Shown here: positions 9,805 to 51,861 of the stretch, one piece after another
Layout: the number at the start of each line of letters is the position of its first letter
How positions within the stretch are numbered: the first letter of the stretch is position 1
Source of the DNA: an uncultured Desulfobacterales bacterium
Lineage (GTDB): Bacteria > Desulfobacterota > Desulfobacteria > Desulfobacterales > B30-G6
Assembly: GCA_964452555.1 (NCBI GenBank)
Contig: CAYVMI010000024.1
Coordinates: forward strand, 11,250 to 75,249
DNA length: 64,000 nt
Direction: 5' to 3'
Notes under the pieces: model-generated
The model's database searches: none
Told to the model about the DNA's origin: nothing
Seen by the model: the letters and a program-made list of their open reading frames with translations, nothing else
Translations under genes and position numbers: made by a program

Positions 9805-9893
9805 GGTTTTAGGTTTTAAGTTTTAGGTTTTAGGACAAAAAACAGGTTACATTTACAGCCACTTAAAACTTAACACCTAAAACTTAAAACGCC
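9805..9893. repeat. Inverted pair of tandem 7-8-nt repeat arrays, (G)GTTTTA(A/G) x4 and its complement x4, around a 26-nt spacer
   Basis: GGTTTTAGGTTTTAAGTTTTAGGTTTTAGG (9805-9834) faces ACTTAAAACTTAACACCTAAAACTTAAAACGCC (9861-9893). Confidence 0.7.
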
Positions 9894-12796: not shown

Positions 12797-14230
12797 ATGA
12801 AACCGATTATTCAATTTTTATCCGACCAAGAAGTTGAGATTCTGCACGTCCAATCGTTGAAAATCTTAAAAGAAATTGGCATGCGCCTGCCCCACGATGA
12901 AGCCATTGAGCTCTTATCTCAACATGGAGTTGAGATCGTGGATAAAAATGTGGTGCGGTTTCCTGAGGAATTGGTCTCCAGCACCATTAAAATGCTGCCC
13001 AAACTGAAAGACGTCACCCTGTACGGGCGGGACCCCAAACATGATGTCACTTTTGACAAACACGAACCAGCCTTGGCCTGCATGACCATGGCGGTAAACG
13101 TTATTGATCCGTATACGCGCCTTAAACGGCCGGCCACCAACGATGACTTGGCGGTTTTGACACGCATGGCTGATGAACTGGAAAATATTCGCGTAAACGG
13201 CGGTCTGGTGACACCGCAGGAAGTCCCCAAAAATTTCAACGACTGGTACACTTGGGCCACCACCATTAAAAATACGAGTAAGCATATCACCGGCGGGATG
13301 CTGGGAGCCAGCTGTGTCCAAGACGCTGCAAAAATGGCGGCCATTGCGCTCGGGGATGAGGAGCACTTCTATGCCAGGCCATTCATTTCCGGCTGGGTTC
13401 TGACCCTGCCGCCCCTTGGAATCGATGCGGAGTCCCTGGAGGCCTTGATGGAAATGAGCCGCATGAACATACCGGCCATCGTCAGCTCCGGCCCCATACT
13501 GGGGACTTCTTCTCCAGTGACCATCGCCGGTACTGTTGCCCAGGCCCACGCTGAAATCCTGGCCTGCATCGTTGTCTCTCAGTTAGTGAACCCGGGTGCG
13601 CCTATTGTCTATACCAGTTTTGCCCGCGGAATCGACATGAAGAGCGGTAATATTTCCATGGCATGCCCGGAATTTGGGATTTTGAAAGTTGCCATGGCTC
13701 AAATGGGAAGATATCTTGACCTGCCGGTACGCATGCCCGCTTTGCTGCGGGATTCCAAAACTATTGATGCTCAGGCCGGATACGAAACCGGCATGATTGG
13801 AACCGTAACCGGTCTAACGGCCGACCTCATGGATGCCATGCAGTTGGATATGGATTTGGTGGTGGATTTCCCTGATCTGGTTTTTTGCAATGAATGCATG
13901 GCCGGTATCAGCCGTATGGCCAGAGAATTGAAAGTAAATACAGAATCGCTGGCCCTGGAGGCCATAGCAAATGTCGGTCCTGGAGGTACTTTCTTAAGTC
14001 ACCCCCATACTTACGATAATTTTCGCAAGGAGCTATGGATACCATCTTTCATGGAACGCAGAAATTGGGACTTGTGGGAAGCGGACGGGGCCCTGGACAT
14101 ATTCAAAGTTGCTGAAAAGAAAACCCTTGAAATGCTGGAGCAAAAACCACTCACCTTGCTGTCAGAAGAAATTGAAAAGCAAATCGATACAGTCGTAGAG
14201 CGGGCCCAAGCCAAACACACTGAGCCTTAA
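12797..14230 (+). CDS. MttB-superfamily methyltransferase, non-pyrrolysine type (complete)
   Basis: 477 aa, uninterrupted, with no in-frame TAG. Full-length similarity to ORFs 2-1177 and 50398-51861. Confidence 0.9.
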   Translation: MKPIIQFLSDQEVEILHVQSLKILKEIGMRLPHDEAIELLSQHGVEIVDKNVVRFPEELVSSTIKMLPKLKDVTLYGRDPKHDVTFDKHEPALACMTMAVNVIDPYTRLKRPATNDDLAVLTRMADELENIRVNGGLVTPQEVPKNFNDWYTWATTIKNTSKHITGGMLGASCVQDAAKMAAIALGDEEHFYARPFISGWVLTLPPLGIDAESLEALMEMSRMNIPAIVSSGPILGTSSPVTIAGTVAQAHAEILACIVVSQLVNPGAPIVYTSFARGIDMKSGNISMACPEFGILKVAMAQMGRYLDLPVRMPALLRDSKTIDAQAGYETGMIGTVTGLTADLMDAMQLDMDLVVDFPDLVFCNECMAGISRMARELKVNTESLALEAIANVGPGGTFLSHPHTYDNFRKELWIPSFMERRNWDLWEADGALDIFKVAEKKTLEMLEQKPLTLLSEEIEKQIDTVVERAQAKHTEP

Positions 14231-15357: not shown

Positions 15358-15933
15358 CACTCCTCCTATATGGAAATCGTATTGGACATCTTTTATAGCG
15401 TTTCTATACCAGCATATCAAGAGGTGGCAATTTTGGACAATTCACGCATGGTCCTCTAAATCAGGTTTTTCAACTACTGAATAGATGATCAAAATATAAG
15501 ATCGCTGAACATTAAAAAAGCACCCAAATCAAATCGTTGGTTTTATGTGGCGCGCTTATACAATTTAAAATACTCCCAATTCAAAAATTCAAAATTGCTG
15601 AATCAAACCAAATCTTTTTTCAAAGCATTCAAGCGTAAGTATCAATATGGTAATAGGAAGTTTAAATGTAGATTACATCAAATTGAGGAAATACTTCTAT
15701 ACGTTAACTTTATGATTATGTCTTTTTGTCAATATTTTCTTCGTGTTATCGCAAGTCACAACATAATTTTTTCGGTCATATGTTTTGATTTCTTTACGTA
15801 GTTGGGTGAATATCAGTCAAAAATATACCGTCATTTTCCTGCAACCGTCGTTTTGCCATTACAATAGGTTTCTTTTAATAACGTCAATATGACATATTTA
15901 TTGTCCGTGGTGAGGGCATTGTAGCCAGCGGTA

Positions 15934-17172
15934 TTAAACAGTATGGATATCAAATTCCATTAAAACCACCTGTGTCAATTTTTTAAGAATTTTTGAAGAT
16001 AGATTGACTGTGATTTCCTTTTTTCTTCCATACCGCCCTTTCGATAAAAGCCGCGCCTGGATAAATCCATACATATCTAATTCGGAAACCAAATCAGAAA
16101 AAGCCCGTTGGGTAAGAGTCTTGAGATCAGCTTTATCGCAAAAGGAACAATATATTGCATAGGCCTCGCCGGTATATAATGGTTTGGCACTTATTGAATT
16201 TCTGGAAATAATTGAATACAAAACAGCCTGAAGTTGCTTCGGGCTTGATTTAATCATCGCGACATATTTATCTTTCTCTATTTCCTCCAAGGCCTTATCC
16301 AAAAGGTCTAACGATATTGCTGTCCCCTCTTTTTCAGCCATGTGAGATGATTTTGATAACAGTTCGACAGCCTTTCGTGCATCTCCATGTGTTCTGCTGG
16401 ATATAGCGGCGATTTTATCAACAACACCCTCTTCTATAAATTTTTCATTCAGGGCCTTTTTTATTCGTAATGAAAGAATTTTCTGGAGATCACAGGCATT
16501 ATAAGGCTCGAACAACAGTTCATTTATCTTTAAAAAAGATTTAATACGCGGATCAACATTATCCTGCCAATTCAGTCTATTTGAGGTGAACACAATCAGC
16601 AGCTTCGCTGATATTTTTTGTGGCAACCGTTTTACAATAAATTTTAAAAAGCTATCCAAATCACGTTTGATATGATCGATTTCGTCTATAAAGAGGATTA
16701 AATAGCCTTTGTAATCAACGATTTTTTCCTCAATCTTGCTCATCAATTCATCCAGAGATATTCCCTTTTTATATCGCTTTGCTGCGTTTAGAAAACAGGC
16801 AAGGTCATTTAATGCGCGAAAACATGGTTTGGGCGTAGATAGATCAAGATGGATATATTTCATGTTGATTTTTCGTTTTTCACACAGCGACTGGAACAAA
16901 TTTAGGAAATAAAGCATGGTTACTGTTTTGCCTGCACCGGTTTTTCCAAGGAGTGAAAGATGGATGGGATGATCATTTCGAAAGATAGGTGCGAAGTGGG
17001 AGCTTAATTCACGGATTTCTCTATCCCTGACATCAATATCGAAAATTTCACGTAATACCTCAAATTGCTCTTCTCGATGCAGTTGCTCATCATCTAAATA
17101 TTTTCTGTTCTTGATAATCGTGTTTTTAAGAAGAGTTTTTATTTGTTTTTCGATTTTTATTTCAACATCCAT
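15934..17172 (-). CDS. Orc1/Cdc6-type AAA+ ATPase with C-terminal winged helix
   Basis: Walker A GKTGAGKT, Walker B LILFIDEIDH, sensor-1 VFTSN, sensor-2 GDARKAVELL. C-terminal LTQRAFSDLVSELDMYGFIQARLLSKGRYGRKKEI matches the Cdc6 winged-helix signature. Confidence 0.85.
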   Translation of the reverse strand: MDVEIKIEKQIKTLLKNTIIKNRKYLDDEQLHREEQFEVLREIFDIDVRDREIRELSSHFAPIFRNDHPIHLSLLGKTGAGKTVTMLYFLNLFQSLCEKRKINMKYIHLDLSTPKPCFRALNDLACFLNAAKRYKKGISLDELMSKIEEKIVDYKGYLILFIDEIDHIKRDLDSFLKFIVKRLPQKISAKLLIVFTSNRLNWQDNVDPRIKSFLKINELLFEPYNACDLQKILSLRIKKALNEKFIEEGVVDKIAAISSRTHGDARKAVELLSKSSHMAEKEGTAISLDLLDKALEEIEKDKYVAMIKSSPKQLQAVLYSIISRNSISAKPLYTGEAYAIYCSFCDKADLKTLTQRAFSDLVSELDMYGFIQARLLSKGRYGRKKEITVNLSSKILKKLTQVVLMEFDIHTV

Positions 17173-17177
17173 TCTCG

Positions 17178-17395
17178 CTCCACCGGAAATTTACCAAGCT
17201 ATGTTGATGTTCTGAATGTACTCATATAAATAATTTTTGGTTTTATCAGTGGGTGTAGTTTTCCGATGGAAAATGTCAGGCGGGTGTGGGGATTACATAT
17301 TTTTTCTTTTTCTTGTTTGTTTCTATATAGAAAATAAATAATATGAATAGCATAAATATAATTATAATAGATTCCATCGGAAATTTACTCTCGCT
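17178..17395. other. Origin-like module: three TTCC-N4-GGAA dyad repeats around a ~75-bp extreme AT tract
   Basis: CTCCACCGGAAATTTACC (17178-17195), GTTTTCCGATGGAAAATGTC (17258-17277, opposite orientation) and ATTCCATCGGAAATTTACTCTCGCT (17371-17395). AT tract at 17296-17370. GGGTGT boxes at 17251 and 17283. Confidence 0.45.
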
Positions 17396-17478
17396 GAAAT
17401 AAACCCCTATTGGGAAAAGATTAACTCAGACCGGAGAACAAAGAAAAACAGTCTATAATTTGTAGAGTTTTAATGAAC

Positions 17479-17841
17479 TCATCTCAAATGCGGATGATAA
17501 GTCAGTTTGCTCTGAATTTTATAAGGCCTGGGATGTGACACGGAATGTATTCGATATGCATCTCTAAACGCAGATCGAGAGTAACCAACAGTCAGTTGAA
17601 TATCATCGCCTTTATTAATAAGGCGATCGACAGAATCAGTTTTTCGATTAAACGGATTGCTTAAAAGTCCGTATAAGTTCCCTATGCTTGGTTTCTGATT
17701 TTCATCCCTGAACTCAACATGATAATGCTTATAGGTACCTTTCTGTTCGACAACAATCCCGATCATACCATTGCCATACCTGTATTTGTCTATGACCTTA
17801 CCGCTTATATACTCACCCCTGATATAATCAATTAATGCCAT
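17479..17841 (-). CDS. Hypothetical protein (ORFan, 120 aa)
   Basis: Clean ORF in the AT-rich island. No recognisable motif and a weak RBS. Confidence 0.45.
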   Translation of the reverse strand: MALIDYIRGEYISGKVIDKYRYGNGMIGIVVEQKGTYKHYHVEFRDENQKPSIGNLYGLLSNPFNRKTDSVDRLINKGDDIQLTVGYSRSAFRDAYRIHSVSHPRPYKIQSKLTYHPHLR

Positions 17842-17902
17842 ATTATTTTGGGGTAAAGGATATGATCTATAAATACTTTTTGATTTTCATAAAAAAATGT
17901 TG

Positions 17903-17941
17903 CCTCGTTTCGTGAGATTTTAGAGAAAACACGAAACGAGG
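17903..17941. promoter_or_regulatory. Perfect 12-bp inverted repeat in a divergent intergenic region, covering the RBS of the downstream gene
   Basis: CCTCGTTTCGTG (17903-17914), 15-nt loop, CACGAAACGAGG (17930-17941). The right arm contains the GAGG used as RBS for ATG 17950. Confidence 0.5.
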
Positions 17942-17949
17942 TGATAGAA

Positions 17950-18327
17950 ATGGTAAAACCTGCGACAACAAAGCAGATAGCGTTAATAAAACAGCTAAAA
18001 CCAGATAGCGCCGACATCAGCTTGAACAGTTTTGAGGCATCGAAACTGATTGGCCGGTTAATTCAAAGTAAGGGACAGAGCGGCAATCTATTAGGAATTG
18101 AAAAACAGATAAATGAACCCCGGCTCGGGATGGCAATGAAAGAATGTTATAAAATTTGGACCAGATGGGGGAACAGAGATTTTCTTTTTGGAGACCGTAG
18201 AATTCGATTTATCAAAGAAGCTATTTTAACATATTATCTTTTTACAGAAATAGAAAATCGACTCAGAAATAATTTTTATAAAGGCGAAAAGTATATAGAA
18301 GAACTTGCCCCAGATTGGATTCCATAA
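17950..18327 (+). CDS. Hypothetical protein (ORFan, ~125 aa)
   Basis: ATG 17950 lies 8 nt after GAGGTG (track start GTG 17941). N-terminus is MVKPATTKQIALIKQL. No confident family assignment. Confidence 0.5.
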   Translation: MVKPATTKQIALIKQLKPDSADISLNSFEASKLIGRLIQSKGQSGNLLGIEKQINEPRLGMAMKECYKIWTRWGNRDFLFGDRRIRFIKEAILTYYLFTEIENRLRNNFYKGEKYIEELAPDWIP

Positions 18328-18633
18328 AGCTCCCTGGCTAAAACCAGGGTTCTTGTGGTCATTTCTCCATTTGGAGTTGATGAAGTATGATTTCTTTTTT
18401 TTCGATATAACAACTGGATTTTAAGCAAACTCTTTCTCAATTTTGGTTTTCTACACACCTAAAGCTTTAAAAGTCACTTCAAGTGCTCGGATATAAACTC
18501 TAAGAGTTTATTATCCTCACCTTGCAGCTAAACATTTAAATCTTCCCCCCAAAGGGGTCGGCTAAAAACATTTAATCCCCCCAAAATATTCCGTCGAAGG
18601 TTCACAAAGTGAAACCTTCGCGGAGGTATTAAA

Positions 18634-19218
18634 ATGAAAACTATAGCAAACATCGGTTGGAAAAATGAAGAACTGATTGTCCAGGAGAACCTACCAGTAT
18701 GTGCTGGCTTGAAAGTGATTCGTAAAAACGATCCCAATTACGGTCTCTCGGATGAGGAGATCCAAGACAGGAATGAATTTATTCGTTGTTACTTATTAAG
18801 GGATTTTGAGCCGCTTTTAAAAATACCAATACAAGTTGCCGAAGATGATTTTTTCATACCAGAGCATGATGTATGTTCTTCTGAATACACTGCGTTTAAC
18901 ACCCATGATTTTCAGAAAAGAATGCGGCCCTTCAATAGATACGCATACGCGATGAAAATAATATTAGAACGTGTAAAAGACCTTGCGATTTTATATTCAG
19001 TAGTAAGTTCCCGGGATGGCAAAGAAGAGATTTTTAGACGATTCGAATCACTGGTTGAATATCATTTCAGGGGTCGGCTTTTGTTCCTTGTTCGAAGATA
19101 TAGATATGCATATAGTGATTACGGGAGAATCAAATTAAAACAAAATATCGGCGAAATTAATCGAAGAATTCTTGAATGTAAAAGGATATGGGAGCAATTT
19201 GCTCCCTGGGACGTTTGA
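18634..19218 (+). CDS. Hypothetical protein (ORFan, 194 aa)
   Basis: RBS GGAGG at 18622-18626. Preceded by a hairpin (18595-18620) and two direct repeats. Confidence 0.55.
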   Translation: MKTIANIGWKNEELIVQENLPVCAGLKVIRKNDPNYGLSDEEIQDRNEFIRCYLLRDFEPLLKIPIQVAEDDFFIPEHDVCSSEYTAFNTHDFQKRMRPFNRYAYAMKIILERVKDLAILYSVVSSRDGKEEIFRRFESLVEYHFRGRLLFLVRRYRYAYSDYGRIKLKQNIGEINRRILECKRIWEQFAPWDV

Positions 19219-19403
19219 GTATGATAATATTGGAACTCCTTTGTCCCGTGATAAGGAAAACCGATCCTATATATAAATTTTTCGTTTTCACGCATTTTTA
19301 TGTTTTCTTTCCACTATACTTATAAAACACGGCGATAGATTTGTTGATATTCCCGCTTACGATTACCTCCATTGTCATTGAATAAACAATGGAGGTGCTC
19401 AAC

Positions 19404-19694
19404 ATGAATGCGTACGAACTATATGAAGTAAATAAAGCGATCAATGATGTCAGTAAAGGCTACAATGAGATCGGTCGAAGCCAGAAAACGTTGGCTCCAA
19501 AAACCAACAAATGGGATTATATATTAAGGAAAATTTGCCTTGGCTGTAATAAAACTTTGGGAATCTATGAGGTTCAAAATAATCTTGCTTTTTGTTTCCA
19601 GTGCCGGAAATATTTATTTCCGGAAACAGTATATCATCAGGATCCAATCAAAAACCGATTCCGTTCATTACGATCCAGAGGACATCCGATGTAA
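19404..19694 (+). CDS. Hypothetical small protein with a CxxC...CxxC zinc-ribbon-like motif
   Basis: ATG 19404 follows RBS GGAGGTG. Contains CLGCNKT...CFQCRK. Confidence 0.45.
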   Translation: MNAYELYEVNKAINDVSKGYNEIGRSQKTLAPKTNKWDYILRKICLGCNKTLGIYEVQNNLAFCFQCRKYLFPETVYHQDPIKNRFRSLRSRGHPM

Positions 19695-19789
19695 CGCGAC
19701 TTATGCCTGGCATTGCAAATATAGGGGTGGTTTTTGCAATATATTTGATCTTCAACTGGGGTCCTATAAACTGTAAATGCGCCAACAGC

Positions 19790-20236
19790 CTAATGCGCAT
19801 TCCCGCCTTGAAAAGCAATTCTAAGTGACAGGTTATCGCAAACAAACTCGTATGGTAGTGGGGAACCTATTGATCCCCGATATGCGTTCGTTGGGATAAC
19901 AAAGGCAAATTCTCCAGGTGGTATACAGCCGATATTAAATTCCCCAGATTGATTAATGCTGGCAGATTTAATTGGCGTTTTTTCGCCGATTTCATCCATG
20001 ACAGCGTCATATAATGTTGTTGACGTGCTGTATAAAAACACACGCGAGTTAGCAGTAATATCGCCTGAAACCGTACCATGGATATTTACACAGTTGCGCG
20101 GATATTCGTCGGCCAGGCGATTTTTTGGGTTAGAAATGGGTATATTGTTCTGACAACCGGTTGCTAATAATTCAACCAGGCAGATGAATACTATTACGAT
20201 TGTCAAACATATTGATTGTAAAAATTTGGTACTCAT
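19790..20236 (-). CDS. Predicted lipoprotein, beta-rich (carboxypeptidase-regulatory-like fold possible)
   Basis: Signal peptide with lipobox LLATGC. The mature part is rich in beta-type segments (IHGTVSGDI). Confidence 0.55.
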   Translation of the reverse strand: MSTKFLQSICLTIVIVFICLVELLATGCQNNIPISNPKNRLADEYPRNCVNIHGTVSGDITANSRVFLYSTSTTLYDAVMDEIGEKTPIKSASINQSGEFNIGCIPPGEFAFVIPTNAYRGSIGSPLPYEFVCDNLSLRIAFQGGNAH

Positions 20237-20330
20237 AGGTACTAATTTTATTGGAAGGGTTTTTATATTTTGCGGTTTTACTTTGCCGTGTGAGCAAGTA
20301 TTATCGTAAAATATTTAAAGGGAAACAATC

Positions 20331-20678
20331 ATGAGCAGGTTTATGCTTGGACCAAATTTCAATCGCCTCTACGGCGATGAAGGATATAAGATAAGATATA
20401 TGCGGGATCTGCAAATACAGATAAGAGAGGGGTATTTGAGATTCTGTAGATTGTTGGGAAAATCTACTAATAAGGTTTTTAATGTAGCCGATGAGCGAGA
20501 ATTGGTAAAACTATTCTACTGGCTACAAAATGATATAAAGATATACAAAAAGATTCGAGGGACAGGAATCGAGGGAGTTATAGGTGGTGATATAACAGAT
20601 ATTGAAAAAAAGTTGATTAAAAATAATCAGAGTTACCGGTTGCGTCGGGGACTATCGTCCCCTAGGCCCCGACTCTAA
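20331..20678 (+). CDS. Hypothetical protein (ORFan, 115 aa)
   Basis: ORF with RBS-like AGGGA. No recognisable motif. Confidence 0.4.
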   Translation: MSRFMLGPNFNRLYGDEGYKIRYMRDLQIQIREGYLRFCRLLGKSTNKVFNVADERELVKLFYWLQNDIKIYKKIRGTGIEGVIGGDITDIEKKLIKNNQSYRLRRGLSSPRPRL

Positions 20679-20688
20679 AGAGTCGGGG
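20667..20688. terminator. Stem-loop between convergent genes
   Basis: CCCCGACTC-taaa-GAGTCGGGG, preceded by a second hairpin GGGGAC-tatc-GTCCCC (20647-20662). No clear U-run on either strand. Confidence 0.35.
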
Positions 20689-20741
20689 CAAATAGGGGCT
20701 GAAGCTATTTGCCAAAGATTGTGGGAAGAGGTTCTATATAT

Positions 20742-22223
20742 TCAGGGCAAAATAGAAATACGAAGATAATAAAGGAAAATAAGAGATAACCATCCCATAT
20801 CTACAGGCACTTGATATAGCCGTCCAGGTGCAAAACGAGCTTTAATATGGCGCATTCCGGGTACGATCACGCGTACAACCGATACCCCGGCCGCAGGTGG
20901 AGTATAATCCAACACGAAAATTGGTCGCCCTTTTTGTTTGCCTATTGAGGTGCATAAATGCAGCTTTTCTTTCAAGTTACCTGGTTGGGCCAAAAATCGG
21001 TCCACAGCTTTTGGCGATCTCATTTTACCGGGTTGCATTTGGGGGTTATTTTTAATGAAATCACTTTGGGCCCACAAAATAAAGTTGCGTGCAGATTGAT
21101 CCAAAGATTCTAATCCACCGACGTCAATTTGTTTTTGTATGATCCGTTTGAGTGCGTGTACCTGCAGCATCTCACGCACTGCAGATTTGAGAGCTGATAA
21201 GTAATCGAAGTTTGCACCAAACCCCATGTCAATATCTGATTCATCACTGTTCATCGAAATTGCAGCAATCACGGGAATACCGAGATCATGGGTCAAGTCC
21301 AAAGCATAAAACCGACGATCCAATATTTCCAGCCAGCGCAGGCAACCATCTAATTCCGTATCCCTAAAATATTCTGGATCTATTGCCGGGCGGATGATCC
21401 GATTGTACCACCAAATCCCCACGGCGTCCCTTTCCACCACTTCCAGAAATCCCGAAACAATGGCTTCCTTACGCGTGGGGCCTGCGGCACAGCCATTGCT
21501 ATCGGCGATCAGATAATTTCGATCGTGGGGACAATGCAGATAGCAAAGTCCGGCGGGAACAAAATACGGTTTTCCTTCTGGATAGGAAGATACCTCAACC
21601 CAATCCAAAAGGTTATCGCTCCGGACGGGGTAAGGAACGCGATGCCGCTCTCCGAATTGGTTGTCCCGGACGTTCCTTTCTTGATATTGACGTTCACTGA
21701 AAAGAAGGAACTGATGAGGGTGAAGGCCTTTAGTACCTAATTCGCTTTTTTTTGCCCTGGTGATTTTAATATCCTCACGCCAGGTGATGGCCATCGTCTC
21801 CACCAGTTCTCCCAGAGCAGTTAAGATCCCTGTTTGGGGGGTAAATTCTGAACCGGCTGTATATATGTCTTGTTTCGCTAAATCATTTTCTTTTCCTCCG
21901 GACTTGATGTCTGGTTTTTTGGGGATTGCGGCGTAACTGAAAATTGGAAAATCATCATCGGGATTGATTGATACCAGCGCCCGAAGGCATGGTTCACAGG
22001 TCCTACAAACTGATCGGAATTGTTTTGCTAATTCATTTGACTGCCATTCTACTACCGTATTAGGATCAAAGTCTTCAGCAACGATTAGATTCCAATCGCT
22101 TAAAGCATAAAGAACATGGTAAACCTCTTCAGATTCAAACGATTCGCAAAGTTTGCGAACGATGTCTTGTACCGTGCGATGACCGTTAATCAATGCAGCA
22201 ACTTTAACAAGCATATGATTCAA
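20742..22223 (-). CDS. YcaO-domain protein (ATP-dependent peptide backbone-modifying enzyme) with an extra ~110-aa N-terminal region
   Basis: SNGCAAGPTRKEAIVSGFLEVVERDAVGIWWYN is the YcaO core. The VVRVIVPGM...RFAPGR tail is also YcaO-like. N-terminal LINGHRTVQDIVRKL...VYHVLYAL resembles the helical part of PqqD-like RRE domains. Confidence 0.85.
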   Translation of the reverse strand: MNHMLVKVAALINGHRTVQDIVRKLCESFESEEVYHVLYALSDWNLIVAEDFDPNTVVEWQSNELAKQFRSVCRTCEPCLRALVSINPDDDFPIFSYAAIPKKPDIKSGGKENDLAKQDIYTAGSEFTPQTGILTALGELVETMAITWREDIKITRAKKSELGTKGLHPHQFLLFSERQYQERNVRDNQFGERHRVPYPVRSDNLLDWVEVSSYPEGKPYFVPAGLCYLHCPHDRNYLIADSNGCAAGPTRKEAIVSGFLEVVERDAVGIWWYNRIIRPAIDPEYFRDTELDGCLRWLEILDRRFYALDLTHDLGIPVIAAISMNSDESDIDMGFGANFDYLSALKSAVREMLQVHALKRIIQKQIDVGGLESLDQSARNFILWAQSDFIKNNPQMQPGKMRSPKAVDRFLAQPGNLKEKLHLCTSIGKQKGRPIFVLDYTPPAAGVSVVRVIVPGMRHIKARFAPGRLYQVPVDMGWLSLIFLYYLRISILP

Positions 22224-22498
22224 CCCTATGACAATAAAATTATAATATTAGGATTTTTTTACATGTAATGTAATAATTGCAAATATAGAACATATATGGT
22301 AGGCATCAGAGTTACGAACGCTACGTACACATCCTATTCTTTTCCGACTCCACGCTGAATTACAATTCACCTAACATTGCTCGCTACTGCATTAAGTCAA
22401 TTCACGCTGCAATCACAAGAGTTAAAGGTCCACCACTACTACGGTAAGTGATGCCATCCACGGGCTTACCAGATCCCACCAAACAAAGGAGGTTACTC

Positions 22499-22795
22499 AT
22501 GCCGAGATTAAACCTGTCCAAAACGGATTGTAAAAAAATGGGAAAGTTGATCGGTGATGCTTGGCGTCATCCTGACAAGCGGAAAAAACTACTCGTAAAC
22601 CCAGAAAAGGAAATGACCAAAGCGGGCATTAAAATACCAAATGTTGACAAGATTCGGATCGTCGCCGTCGAAGATACCAAAACGACAATTCATTTGGTTT
22701 TGCCAGTACGGCCGGATAGCGTCACCTTTACCGATCTGAAATCAAGTTCGTTTCAGTTAGATTTGGGGCAAAAACTTTTTGCTGCCTGCCGCTAA
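22499..22795 (+). CDS. NHLP (nitrile-hydratase-like leader peptide) family RiPP precursor
   Basis: RBS AAGGAGG precedes ATG 22499. The leader reads LIGDAWRHPDKRKKLLVNPEKEMTKAGIKIPNVDKIRIVAVEDTKTTIHLVLPVRP. The C-terminal tail is DSVTFTDLKSSSFQLDLGQKLFAACR. Confidence 0.8.
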   Translation: MPRLNLSKTDCKKMGKLIGDAWRHPDKRKKLLVNPEKEMTKAGIKIPNVDKIRIVAVEDTKTTIHLVLPVRPDSVTFTDLKSSSFQLDLGQKLFAACR

Positions 22796-30280: not shown

Positions 30281-30533
30281 GAGGACCTGTTTCTAAAATA
30301 TCTTTTAGCTGATCCGCCTGAGTTCGCTGAATCTCGAACGTTGTTTCGTGTTTTAAATTTCTCGAATAATAAAGTATGTCTGCGGCTTGAAACAAGATTC
30401 CGTTTTGAAATTGTCATCTACTCCGCGCATTTCGAGGAGAGTTGAAATCATCCTTTATAAACAGCTCCTAGCTATGAACCGAAAAGAGTGGGCTTGTGAA
30501 TTGGCTAAAACCCTGATTGGAATGCGTTTTAAG

Positions 30534-30571
30534 CAAAAAAAATGGGCAGCAGAAAATTAATTCTGCTGCCC
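30534..30571 (-). terminator. Strong Rho-independent terminator reading on the minus strand
   Basis: Minus strand reads GGGCAGCAGAA-ttaatt-TTCTGCTGCCC followed by A-TTTTTTTT. No U-run exists in the plus direction. Confidence 0.7.
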
Positions 30572-30683
30572 CAGGTATTATCGATACTCACCTTGTGGGG
30601 TGCCAATCGTCTTTCCCGGGGGTGTCATTTCTTGTCCGACCGAATATTCCCATGTTTTGCATTGCCCAAGGGCCTTGCTCAAC

Positions 30684-30746
30684 CTGGTCAGGTTCGATCT
30701 GACCTAGTTTGACACCTTGTCTCGCGCTGTCCTGCTTGGTTTTTCC
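30684..30746. repeat. Copy A of a ~60-nt dispersed repeat
   Basis: CTGGTCAGGTTCGATCTGACCTAGTTTGACACCTTGTCTCGCGCTG..CTTGGTTTTTCC aligns with copy B. Confidence 0.6.
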
Positions 30747-30974
30747 AGCGTGGATTCTATCCTTACGAATATTATCTAGCTAGTCAAACGAAGCCCGACC
30801 TTGCTCGGCTCTGGGGTGCTCGCTGCCGCATCAAAATTTCAAAGAATTAAATTGCTCTTGCGAGTGTCATTAATCTAGTCAATTTTAATGCAGCCTCGCT
30901 AAACTTGGCGCTTCCCGTTGATCCGGCCCAATCTTGAACCAAGTAATGTTCCACTCTTACAAGCTTCTTCACAC

Positions 30975-31033
30975 CTAGTCAAGTTCGGCCTGATCCTGTT
31001 CGACACCTTGTTTCGCTCTGCTTGGCTTTTCAC
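30975..31033. repeat. Copy B of the ~60-nt dispersed repeat (291 bp from copy A); a partial third copy lies at 31289-31309
   Basis: CTAGTCAAGTTCGGCCTGATCCTGTTCGACACCTTGTTTCGCTCTGCTTGGCTTTTCAC. Confidence 0.6.
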
Positions 31034-31909
31034 TTCCGGGTTCCGTTTGACCCTTGCGGGTTTTACGTTTCCCGTTAATGTAAAACCGAGCCTTGTGCAA
31101 CCAAGTGCCTCGCTCTGTCCAGCTTGAATTTCCCGTGCCAAGCACTGCCAATTAAGGCTTTGCCAGGCTCGCTCTTTTCAAACTCGACCTTGCTCGACCG
31201 CTTGCCGGATTTTGTCTGGTCTGTTATTTCCAGCTTAATGGCAACCCCTGCGGGTGTCAACAAGCTAGTCATCTCAGGCTGACCTCACCTGGCAAGTTCG
31301 GGTCATCACGATTGGGATCGATAATCACCCTTGATTGTTTTGATAGTTTATTTAATTATTGTTTGTCAACCTTTTTTTTAATTTTTTTATATTTTTTTTC
31401 GTACGTGGCAATTAGTCAATAATTTAATAATTACAGGGTTTTACACATATTTAAATTTTACTTAAAGCAAATTTCTTTTTTATATCGGCCAGTTACTTTG
31501 CTTATTACTGCTTACCTTTATTTAATCATTATTAGTAGTAAATTAGTAATAATTATATTACAGTTTGGATATCAAATATATCGTGTCGATTTAAAATTTT
31601 ATTAGTAATTCAAACAGATAAATAGCTAGTCAAACGTTAGCTTTGAATTTTCTTTTATAGCAATTAAATTTTCCTTAAAAAACGTATCGCACAGCAATAA
31701 TTGTAATAATCTAATCCGTTTTTATGGAATCCGAACCGGCATAAAGGATCAACGTCCGTTTTTGGCCTAAATCAAATCCATTTGCTTTATACGAATGACC
31801 GTCATTAGAAACTTATGGATTGCTTTCAGCATTGACAAACCCGATAAGATGCTTTTAGATAAACCATTCCTTTCCGATAATATCCCGCTTTAAATCAGGA
31901 GGCTTAGCC

Positions 31910-50397: not shown

Positions 50398-51861
50398 ATG
50401 CAGCCCCAACGACTCGAATTTCTAAGTCCGGAAGAAGTAGAAAGCATTCAAAACAAGACCCTCGAAATTCTTGAGAGAACAGGCATCAAGGTCAATCTCA
50501 AAAAGATGCGAGATTTACTGGCCGATCATGGCTGCCGGGTGGATCCCAAGACCCATATCACCAAATTGCCGCCGTCATTGGTGCAGTCTGCCATTCAAAA
50601 GGCGCCCACAGAATTTGTCATCCATGGCGCTGATCCCGACATGCGTTTTCCCATCGGCCCGGGAAAGCGGGTCTGGTCCGGTCTGGGCACTGCCTTTCGC
50701 ATGCTGAACATCGAAGACGGTAGCCATTCAGACGCCACCCATCAGGATGTTGCCACCCATTTAATTCTCTTTGACCACCTGGACAATATCTCCTGTAATC
50801 AGATGGACGTCTGGGCCCAGGATCTGCCCATGCATACCATCCATGTGGAAGCCTTACGCACCTGGGCATTGGAGTGCCGGAAATCCATCGGGATGGGTGC
50901 TTACGGCGTTATGGCCACTCAGGACATGATGGAGATGATCTCCCTGATTCGGGGCGGTCGCGATCAAATGAAAAAATTTCCGCCTTTCTGCGGCATTGTG
51001 AGCATCGAGAGCCCCCTGTCCAGCACCCAGGCGCAGCTGGAAGGCATGATCATTCTGGGGGAGCATGGCATGCCGGCGCTGCTCTCACCCGAGGCCATGG
51101 CTGGTACCACGGCACCGGCGCCCCTGGCCGGTCTTTTGTTGCAGCATAACGTGGAGATCATCGCGCATGTGGCCATGGCTCAGATTGCCAATCCAGGCGC
51201 ACCGGTCATGTATGGAACGGTTTCGACAATAGCCGATTTAAAAACCGGTTCCCCGGCTCTGGGTTCAATTGAGACCGGCATGATCAGCGCTGCTTCGGCT
51301 CAGCTAGCGCGGTCGTATGGTTTACCGGTTCGTACCGTCGCCGGCGCCACCGAATCCAAGTTGCTGGATGTTCAATGTGGGTTTGAAAGAGCCCAATCCA
51401 TGCTGCTGGCGGCCATGGCCGGTGCCAACTACATCACCTGCATCGGAACCTTGGAATCCACCAACCTGGGTGCGCATGAAATGGCGGTTATCGACAATGA
51501 GATCACCGGCAGGGTAGACCGGGCCCTAAGGGGCATTCACGTGGACGATACCATGCTGGCGGCGGAAGATATCCAGCGGGTAGGTCCGGGCGGTAACTAC
51601 TTAATGGAGCCCCTGACTTTGGAGAGCTTTAAACAGGAGCATTTCATTCCTTCGGTTTCCGATCGGGATCAAATGGAGGCCTGGAAAACGGCCGGCAGTC
51701 CGGGCATTGCCGATCATGCCCGGGCCGAAGTGGCCAGGATCCTAGCCGAGCATCAACCCAGAGAGCTGGATCCCAAACTGGTGCGGGAACTGGACAACTA
51801 TGTGGCGATGGTCCAAAAACGCAGCATCACCGATTTTGAAGCGGCGGAATGGGAATCATAG
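50398..51861 (+). CDS. MttB-superfamily methyltransferase, non-pyrrolysine type (complete)
   Basis: 487 aa, uninterrupted. Similar throughout to ORF 12797-14230. Confidence 0.9.
   Translation: MQPQRLEFLSPEEVESIQNKTLEILERTGIKVNLKKMRDLLADHGCRVDPKTHITKLPPSLVQSAIQKAPTEFVIHGADPDMRFPIGPGKRVWSGLGTAFRMLNIEDGSHSDATHQDVATHLILFDHLDNISCNQMDVWAQDLPMHTIHVEALRTWALECRKSIGMGAYGVMATQDMMEMISLIRGGRDQMKKFPPFCGIVSIESPLSSTQAQLEGMIILGEHGMPALLSPEAMAGTTAPAPLAGLLLQHNVEIIAHVAMAQIANPGAPVMYGTVSTIADLKTGSPALGSIETGMISAASAQLARSYGLPVRTVAGATESKLLDVQCGFERAQSMLLAAMAGANYITCIGTLESTNLGAHEMAVIDNEITGRVDRALRGIHVDDTMLAAEDIQRVGPGGNYLMEPLTLESFKQEHFIPSVSDRDQMEAWKTAGSPGIADHARAEVARILAEHQPRELDPKLVRELDNYVAMVQKRSITDFEAAEWES

Follow-up and report, generated by a model that had tools for sequence, protein, structure and literature searches.

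An archaeal-type Orc1/Cdc6 gene with an upstream array of ORB-like boxes: a probable initiator-origin cassette of integrated elements in two bacterial phyla

What is a replication initiator of the archaeal Orc1/Cdc6 type doing in the genome of a bacterium? The pairing of initiator and helicase is thought to be matched by domain, with DnaA acting alongside DnaB in bacteria and Orc1/Cdc6 alongside MCM in archaea and eukaryotes. The question is raised by a 64,000-nucleotide stretch of DNA, hereafter the window, from an uncultured Desulfobacterales bacterium (assembly GCA_964452555.1, contig CAYVMI010000024.1, positions 11,250 to 75,249), in which a preliminary description had recognized an Orc1/Cdc6 gene. 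That description suggested that the gene could be the initiator of an integrated replicon transferred between domains or a repurposed DNA sensor. Here, it is argued that the gene and the 306-bp region upstream of it together form a self-contained archaeal-type initiator-origin cassette of mosaic integrated bacterial elements, present in the window in reduced form, a reading to which a probability of about 0.6 is given. Both the kind of protein and the kind of origin are already well known in archaea; what is new is a conserved Orc1/Cdc6 family in two bacterial phyla, with a cognate array of origin recognition box (ORB)-like sequences travelling alongside. Neither this cis-element nor the lack of most full-element modules in the window copy figured in the preliminary description.

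The gene on which the argument turns is the following.

15934-17172, minus strand: orc1/cdc6, encoding an Orc1-1-type AAA+ initiator of 412 residues with an AAA+ core, a Cdc6 lid and a C-terminal winged helix

Its product is confirmed as a full-length Orc1/Cdc6 protein, and not a TniB, IstB, STAND or DnaA protein. The open reading frame (ORF) starts with ATG, and its translation in the ORF list contains every motif previously quoted, namely GKTGAGKT (76-83), FIDEIDH (161-167), FTSN (195-198), GDARKAVELL (263-272) and the C-terminal segment LTQRAFSDLVSELDMYGFIQARLLSKGRYGRKKEI (353-387). Profile searches bear out the earlier claim of a complete Orc1/Cdc6 signature rather than a generic AAA+ one. 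In Pfam, Cdc6_C (7.8e-23, score 80.7 against a gathering score of 25.1), Cdc6_lid (4e-14, 52.7 against 27) and AAA_22 (3.7e-08) all exceed their gathering scores, and the NCBIfam model TIGR02928 (orc1/cdc6 family replication initiation protein) is matched with 249.1 bits, the cut-off being 181.3; the protein falls below the cut-offs of narrower NCBIfam equivalog models (NF001625 and others). A phmmer search of PDB sequences placed Sulfolobus solfataricus Orc1-1 first (2qby_A, 8.5e-53, residues 47-396, 30.9% identity) and Aeropyrum pernix ORC1 second (2v1u_A, 2.8e-46); Orc1-3 (2qby_B) reached 4.5e-37, eukaryotic Orc1/Cdc6 proteins about 1e-8 and the Orc1-2-like Pyrobaculum aerophilum Cdc6 (1fnn) only 1.6e-14. 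The wing segment shares 18 of 34 residues with Orc1-1 (counted by eye in the phmmer alignment), in agreement with the earlier view that the winged helix lies close to that of archaeal Cdc6.

The same relationship emerges from the fold. An AlphaFold2 model of moderate confidence (pLDDT, the predicted local distance difference test, of 67.6, with the lid and winged helix at about 80-90) retrieved 2qby_A first in Foldseek (1.9e-22), followed by 2qby_B and 2v1u_A, with template modelling (TM) scores of 0.65-0.78. These three chains come from complexes of archaeal Orc1 with origin DNA, so that 2qby and 2v1u rank at the top by both sequence and fold. The preliminary description had singled out the TniB, IstB and STAND families as the matches that would count against an Orc1/Cdc6 assignment; the top matches by profile, in PDB and in Foldseek are all ORC/Cdc6, every one of the 50 best Foldseek chains belongs to that group and none is TniB, IstB, DnaA or STAND. 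A TniB/TnsC/IstB transposition ATPase was likewise rejected, as no such family appeared in Pfam, NCBIfam or the Foldseek top 50 and no transposase is adjacent. The single transposition-type match of the protein is a weak one to a PHROG 'DNA transposition protein' (1.1e-4), confined to the lid region.

Residues expected of a working initiator are retained. Walker A (G76-T83), Walker B (D163/E164), sensor 1 (N198), R209 (assigned as arginine finger by position alone) and sensor 2 (R266) are present and invariant across 18 family members. Also invariant are G137, I138, R356 and R380, which align with G120, L121, R341 and R365 of S. solfataricus Orc1-1, the positions mutated in that protein in its initiator-specific motif (ISM; G120/L121), helix-turn-helix (R341) and wing (R365) (PMC3089459). 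At otherwise invariant columns the window protein has six private substitutions, all of them conservative and within the family range of 0-6; it is free of decay and keeps all family-invariant residues. Residues 1 to about 46 are strongly conserved in the bacterial family, with many invariant positions, and are modelled with low confidence. These N-terminal 45-46 or so residues fall outside the alignment with archaeal Orc1 and are a candidate surface for a bacterial-specific partner.

The second half of the cassette lies in the 306-bp region directly 5' of the gene, which contains three copies of TCCAyCGGAAA. The three boxes, of general form TCCAnnGGAAA, fall within 217 bp at offsets of about -17, -98 and -211 from the ATG.

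17178-17201, plus strand: ORB-like box 1, core TCCACCGGAAA at 17179-17189, 17 nt 5' of the ATG
17248-17271, minus strand: ORB-like box 2, core TCCATCGGAAA at 17260-17270, about -98, dyad end toward the spacer
17271-17372, no strand: AT-rich spacer between boxes 2 and 3, 102 bp, 76.5% AT, a candidate duplex-unwinding element
17320-17333, no strand: 14-bp perfect palindrome TTTCTATATAGAAA near the middle of the spacer, occurring once in the window
17372-17395, plus strand: ORB-like box 3, core TCCATCGGAAA at 17373-17383, about -211, dyad end toward the spacer

Box 3 is inverted relative to box 2, and the spacer that they enclose includes the AT-richest 80-mer of the entire window (17291-17370, 85% AT). 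Box 1 overlaps the likely Shine-Dalgarno sequence of orc1/cdc6 (GGAG on the coding strand), and a box at this offset is found in most homologous loci. The palindrome lies between about -161 and -148 relative to the ATG and keeps this position in five homologous loci (L001, at 9840-9853, L005, L011, L012 and L026); it could serve a second, dimeric factor or belong to a promoter. No sigma-70-like promoter was called on the orc strand of the upstream region. Offsets and orientations of the boxes recur in both clades of the family described below, the Desulfobacterota and the Planctomycetes-Verrucomicrobia-Chlamydiae (PVC) clade. Across 19 non-redundant loci, 41 copies of TCCAnnGGAAA fall in the 5.7 kb upstream of the genes and 12 in 305 kb of other sequence, a 184-fold enrichment; for 45 further metagenome loci the corresponding counts are 111 and 27 (73-fold), and the copies peak at -20, -100 and -210/-220.

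The extended consensus of the bacterial box spans about 24 bp, yTCCAsyGGAAAwyTACtCnCACt. In loci L003 and L008 the boxes read TTCCAGTGGAAAT, the exact reverse complement of the Pyrococcus ORB core 13-mer, which the published Cdc6/Orc1-binding oligonucleotides for Pyrococcus ORB1, ORB2, ORB3 and mini-ORB have in common (PMC1904270). The window boxes depart from this 13-mer at the two positions in the centre of the dyad, and in two boxes a flanking base differs as well. The G-rich extension of archaeal ORBs was not found in the bacterial box, whose extension is wyTACtCnCACt, and beyond the 13-mer only ACTCT aligns with Pyrococcus ORB1; the bacterial box therefore resembles, at the level of sequence, a mini-ORB bearing an extension of its own. 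The second AT-richest stretch of the window (31300-31620, with 80-mers of up to 82.5% AT) lies within a gap of about 1.6 kb (30281-31909) free of ORFs of at least 150 residues, and contains no ORB-like box, tRNA or Rfam match.

An array of this kind might instead consist of operators. On that account, the protein would be an autoregulated, ATP-dependent DNA-binding factor acting over the genes of the element, that is, a transcriptional regulator or switch (for instance, an induction or DNA-damage switch) rather than an initiator. This main rival draws on the overlap of box 1 with the gene's own ribosome-binding region, on the position of the entire array upstream of the gene and on the lack of any helicase or primase travelling with it. 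There are, moreover, documented precedents for Orc1/Cdc6 proteins acting as regulators and not initiators, among them Sulfolobus Orc1-2 and a homologue in the pleolipovirus SNJ2 (PMC9738581, PMC10123103 and PMC5333045). Nevertheless, it is considered unlikely. By the PDB comparison above, the protein is far closer to the initiator-type Orc1-1 and ORC1 than to the Orc1-2-like 1fnn; the core of its boxes is the ORB core of origins; and inverted boxes around an extremely AT-rich spacer with a central motif constitute the layout of an origin. Autoregulation does not in itself exclude an origin, because archaeal origins too sit 5' of orc1 genes and regulate them.

If the array and gene form a cassette, how widely is it distributed? 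A search of 5.8 billion proteins (E <= 1e-10) matched at least 685 related cluster representatives, the best 120 of which are all about 412 residues long and 70-78% identical to the window protein; some of these bear Thermodesulfobacteriota or Syntrophales names, and some come from contigs as long as 564 kb. Among GTDB species genomes, 17 loci carry a homologue. Carriers of the Desulfobacterota type include Desulfobacteraceae, Syntrophales, Desulfovermiculus, an Olavius symbiont and one metagenome-assembled genome (MAG) labelled Balneolales (65-73% identity), identity within Desulfobacterota ranging from 65 to 78% overall. A sister clade at 52-56% identity is made up of PVC bacteria (Kiritimatiellae, Lentisphaerae, Victivallales and Verrucomicrobiota) and includes Pontiellaceae B12227, deposited as a non-MAG genome. 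The unit of gene plus boxes recurs in about 60 loci of anaerobic bacteria. The window gene is thus a member of a large bacterial family spanning two phyla, not a rarity or orphan, and the notion of an oddity peculiar to this genome does not hold. Databases label the family just 'AAA family ATPase' or 'Cdc6/Cdc18 family protein', and no description of a bacterial Orc1/Cdc6 family or its boxes was found in the open-access full texts searched, subscription-only papers being outside that scope.

In an exhaustive search of representatives, similarity falls in steps from the family to a small tier at 38-40% identity and then to one at 28-36%, which includes proteins named as Micrarchaeota Cdc6 (34%) and Acidilobus Orc1/Cdc6 (31%). 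A neighbour-joining tree recovers the Desulfobacterota and PVC clades as monophyletic and joined to one another, with the 38-40% tier as sisters; being midpoint-rooted and mostly unlabelled, it does not identify an archaeal donor. The 38-40% tier is represented at L024 and L025 (proteins P0128 and P0129), in mobile-looking contexts with an ISL3 transposase, an NPHP3_N/NACHT-like ATPase and a DDE transposase, and L025 has one ORB-like box at -85. The initiator of an integrated replicon, one of the two readings in the preliminary description, is favoured by the occurrence of homologues in mobile elements and by the conserved ORB-like, AT-rich array directly upstream of the gene. A recent transfer between domains is not supported, as the closest named archaeal proteins are only about 31-34% identical and the bacterial family is large.

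The genomic surroundings of the relatives show what kind of DNA carries the cassette. Clustering of all ORFs of the loci into families (designated by c-numbers) revealed that the homologues sit in mosaic integrated mobile elements. In Desulfobacterota, a zinc-ribbon protein (c9) is encoded together with c10 and c11 downstream of the orc gene, and the small c6, c16, c7 and c14 upstream; a recurrent module contains c13, a Cas4-like PD-(D/E)XK nuclease and a HerA/FtsK-like DUF87 ATPase of 620-800 residues. The DUF87 ATPase recurs in PVC loci, and ParA, HU, ArdC-N, Replic_Relax, a tyrosine integrase and ISL3 occur sporadically among the relatives. Contigs of 20-24 kb are partial or integrated. No protein partner is universal over 40 loci of the Desulfobacterota type, since c9 occurs in 17 of 27 and every other partner in 0-12 of 29. 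The box array is the only near-universal companion, found with nearly every orc copy, and the conserved unit is accordingly the initiator gene plus its boxes.

Directly downstream of the initiator gene in six PVC loci (L013, L014, L015, L017, L019 and L020) is a translationally coupled gene of family c20, encoding 370-461 residues and having no database match; the N-terminal half of the protein is hydrophobic and looks multi-pass, whereas the C-terminal half is coiled coil. The idea that c20 is a fusion of c9 and c10 was discarded, as neither blastp nor hhalign found similarity and c20 looks like a membrane plus coiled-coil protein.

Family members also adjoin variable cargo of conflict type (L001 14365-21242, L007 9713-11020, L013 1942-3981 and L019 1704-9690), including a set of WD40, protein kinase and JAB/E2-CBASS/ThiF genes, a SMODS cyclase, a caspase-TPR protein, a 1373-residue NACHT protein and an AAA_13 ATPase. 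The elements seem to serve as vehicles for defence genes, and these neighbours (SMODS, NACHT, AAA_13, caspase-TPR and E2/JAB/ThiF) lend some colour to the proposal that the protein is itself a DNA sensor repurposed for an anti-phage or conflict system. So do the derivation of STAND NTPases from the Cdc6/ORC clade (PMC8195603) and weak, sub-threshold matches to Avs1b (PADLOC, E 0.0014, 14 bits) and nSTAND5 (E 0.0064). However, neither an effector nor a sensor domain is present in the protein, each locus has different defence-like neighbours and the window has none, and the constant partner is an origin-type cis-element and not a fixed effector. PADLOC models match none of the companions c9, c10, c11, c13 and c20, and PADLOC gave nothing usable for island proteins and family companions as a whole. 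A sensor role is therefore regarded as very improbable.

Could the archaeal character of the gene have arisen during assembly? Archaeal DNA might have been joined to, or binned with, bacterial DNA; the composition of the island around the gene departs from that of its flanks, and many carriers are MAGs. Against this, an independent Logan assembly of a sequencing run reproduces both junctions, from the aminotransferase gene to Orc1/Cdc6 on one side and from the small genes to YcaO on the other. The aminotransferase abutting the island is 71-81% identical to proteins of Thermodesulfobacteriota, Desulfobacterales and Deltaproteobacteria, and the window further encodes bacterial hybrid histidine kinases, a 4-hydroxybenzoyl-CoA-reductase-like enzyme, MttB-family methyltransferases and an HdrA-like protein. 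Family members also occur within bacterial contigs of 564 kb, 576 kb and 708 kb, one of them from an isolate. An assembly artefact, which the preliminary description had named as a danger, is excluded for practical purposes.

The island itself is indeed an AT-rich tract in a bacterial genome, one of sulfate-reducer type, as first described for its composition and bacterial context: GC content over approximately 15-21 kb is 0.34-0.40, against 0.45-0.55 in the flanks, whose genes are Desulfobacterota-like. Over about 5.3 kb it contains the Orc1/Cdc6 gene, the box array and six small genes.

15421-20741, no strand: accessory AT-rich island, 63% AT (whole window 53%), right-hand limit loosely defined
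17479-17841, minus strand: o120, small gene 5' of the box array, family c46, 47% identical to the gene at the same position in L003
17941-18327, plus strand: o128, small gene of family c48, no annotation
18634-19218, plus strand: o194, family c7 with at least 500 uncharacterized proteins, helical model, no fold or profile match
19389-19694, plus strand: o101, small protein with CxxC...CxxC cysteines, family c47
19790-20236, minus strand: o148, family c16, hydrophobic N-terminus and lipobox-like LATGC
20331-20678, plus strand: o115, small gene of family c6, the last gene collinear with full elements

Related genome GCA_039714495.1 (L028) keeps the block aminotransferase-MttB-DHODH-CN hydrolase-DUF2848, and its synteny stops at the aminotransferase, with no Orc island following. 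The island is accordingly accessory DNA, atypical in composition and missing from the syntenic site of a related genome. The six small genes line up in the same order as the Orc-proximal genes of L002 and L003. Within the island and window, in contrast to the full elements, no remnants of c9-c11, c13, the Cas4-like nuclease or the HerA/FtsK-like DUF87 ATPase were detected; the island contains no integrase, transposase or partition module, no tRNA target or RNA family was found at it, and its flanks have no convincing repeats, just short ones at chance level. Since these modules, the integrase and the flanking repeats are missing, the window copy may no longer move or replicate.

This raises the possibility that the copy studied here is a stranded, inactive relic of a decayed element, even if the family's cassette functions elsewhere. 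The missing modules, of which not even remnants are detectable, are what such decay would leave, and the want of an integrase and of convincing flanking repeats points the same way. Yet the ORF is intact and retains all residues that are invariant in the family, its few private substitutions are conservative and within the range of the family, and the three boxes, the spacer and the palindrome are all intact; compact contexts also occur elsewhere, as at L026. A relic is accordingly thought improbable.

Several other features of the island and its neighbourhood deserve mention. Family c7, which includes o194 and lacks a Pfam domain, is duplicated in one element (L002, 7414-8007 and 13993-14586), and o194 has the conserved motifs AFNTHDFQ and ERVKDLAI; its model (pLDDT 71.5) gave only generic helical-bundle matches at E > 0.2, and profiles of c7 and c9 found nothing among PDB sequences. 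Directly beside the island (20742-22795) lies a pair resembling genes for a ribosomally synthesized and post-translationally modified peptide (RiPP), consisting of a YcaO cyclodehydratase on the minus strand (Pfam 2.9e-67) and a divergent precursor candidate of the NHLP-leader family (TIGR03793, 3e-11, below cut-off). An adenylate-cyclase/TPR protein and an S8 peptidase follow, and L028 has none of the four genes at its syntenic site. Two MttB-superfamily (trimethylamine methyltransferase-like) genes are present (12797-14230 and 50398-51861), the first in the conserved block adjoining the island. Cumulative GC skew over the window (1-64000) climbs to a maximum near 21 kb and declines thereafter; the maximum coincides with a switch of gene strand at the island, from plus over 1-14 kb to minus over 14-31 kb, and the shape is probably an effect of gene orientation.

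How, then, might the proposed initiator-origin cassette operate? Going beyond the in-silico match, we infer that Orc1/Cdc6 monomers would occupy the three ORB-like boxes by means of their winged helix (R356 and R380) and initiator-specific motif (G137/I138). Boxes 2 and 3, in inverted orientation, would bracket an AT-rich unwinding region with its central palindrome, where the ATP-bound initiator may recruit a replicative helicase. Because bacteria lack MCM, the candidate helicases are DnaB of the host and the HerA/FtsK-like ATPase of the elements. Since box 1 covers the ribosome-binding region of orc1/cdc6, its occupancy would add autoregulation. In anaerobic Desulfobacterota and PVC bacteria, the cassette would in this way drive replication of the excised or transferring element. 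That it is a working archaeal-type origin inside bacterial cells, loading a non-MCM helicase (DnaB or HerA/FtsK-like), is put at slightly less than an even chance.

A number of points weigh against the cassette interpretation. MCM, which bacteria lack, is the sole known client of Orc1/Cdc6 (PMC3607249), and no helicase, primase or polymerase was recognized within 10 kb of the gene in the annotated loci; nor was an MCM-like gene recognized in the annotated flanks, the part of the host genomes that was searched. None of 32 complete metagenome contigs, all of them short fragments, has terminal overlaps, and no free circle was found. No relative appeared in an IMG/VR scan or in phage records, and the best-scoring plasmid records listed were all archaeal, at no more than 31% identity. 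The array could be an autoregulatory operator only, given that box 1 covers the ribosome-binding region and that promoters are expected to be AT-rich. To these may be added the reduced state of the window copy, with neither the other modules of full elements nor an integrase or detectable flanking repeats, the missing G-string of the extended box and the moderate confidence of the Orc1/Cdc6 model. Two more familiar identities for the carrier were discarded: a virus, PHROGs having given generic AAA+ and exonuclease matches alone and the viral records no relative, and a known bacterial plasmid replicon, on the plasmid records just mentioned.

What would follow if the initiator-origin cassette is real? 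An archaeal-type initiator and archaeal-type boxes persist under purifying selection on mobile elements in two bacterial phyla, which poses a new question, namely what helicase such an initiator would be loading where MCM is lacking. If the cassette fires, an Orc1-type initiator can couple to a different helicase, and these would be the first Orc-dependent replicons in Bacteria. It could be a module that works in archaea and bacteria alike within syntrophic anaerobic communities, would bear on the exchange and replacement of replication machineries in early evolution, and would offer a compact, sequence-defined origin for genetically difficult anaerobes. If the protein is a regulator only, it would instead be a bacterial case of a non-initiator Orc1 role so far described in archaea. 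Pontiellaceae B12227, as a non-MAG genome, makes the question directly testable.

Comparison with known systems helps to define what is shared and what is distinctive. TniB/TnsC, IstB, DnaC and DnaA proteins and STAND NTPases share the ATPase core of the AAA+ initiator/ORC clade but lack the Cdc6 lid and Cdc6_C winged helix, and are absent from the significant profile matches. Bacterial iteron initiators of the RepA/pPS10 type present a closer functional parallel, in that a winged-helix initiator, for which kinship with the Orc1/Cdc6 winged helix has been proposed, acts on repeats that adjoin an AT-rich region close to its own gene and is self-repressing. Unlike Orc1/Cdc6, however, iteron Rep proteins lack an AAA+ module, and the repeats that they bind have no relation to ORBs; iteron plasmids use established DnaA/DnaB pathways, whereas the helicase route suggested here is a proposal. 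In archaea, too, mobile elements carry Orc1/Cdc6 genes for replication or control, set among many small unannotated neighbours in mosaic backbones; these elements include plasmids (haloarchaeal and Methanosarcina), viruses (pleolipovirus SNJ2) and integrated elements. Such records among the best-scoring plasmid matches listed are all archaeal, with identities of no more than 31%, whereas the present family is bacterial.

The closest likeness is to the archaeal Orc1-1/Cdc6-1 systems of Sulfolobus, Pyrococcus and Aeropyrum. In common with these, the bacterial protein combines an AAA+ module bearing the ISM with a lid and winged helix, and the catalytic motifs and four tested DNA-contact positions are conserved; it is distinguished by an overall identity of about 31% and by approximately 45 N-terminal residues that are conserved in the family and unmatched in archaea. 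The bacterial boxes share the ORB dyad core of Pyrococcus, the 13-mer being identical in some loci, but end in TACtCnCACt with no G-string. In contrast to archaeal oriC1 systems, the host is a bacterium with no known MCM, and the cassette occupies a mobile or accessory island rather than a chromosomal origin. The Sulfolobus ucm sequence was looked for in the spacer and is not present there, the central motif being a palindrome of unrelated sequence and the likeness one of position only. Sulfolobus oriC1 has three ORBs, each the site of one Orc1-1 monomer bound in a defined polarity; ORB2 and ORB3, in inverted orientation, enclose an AT-rich duplex-unwinding element with an essential short motif midway, and orc1-1 is adjacent (PMC12141716), a layout also stated in general terms elsewhere (PMC5333045). 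The bacterial array follows the same plan: of its three boxes, two stand inverted on either side of an AT-rich spacer that bears a conserved central motif, and the initiator gene is adjacent, its start lying 98 bp from box 2.

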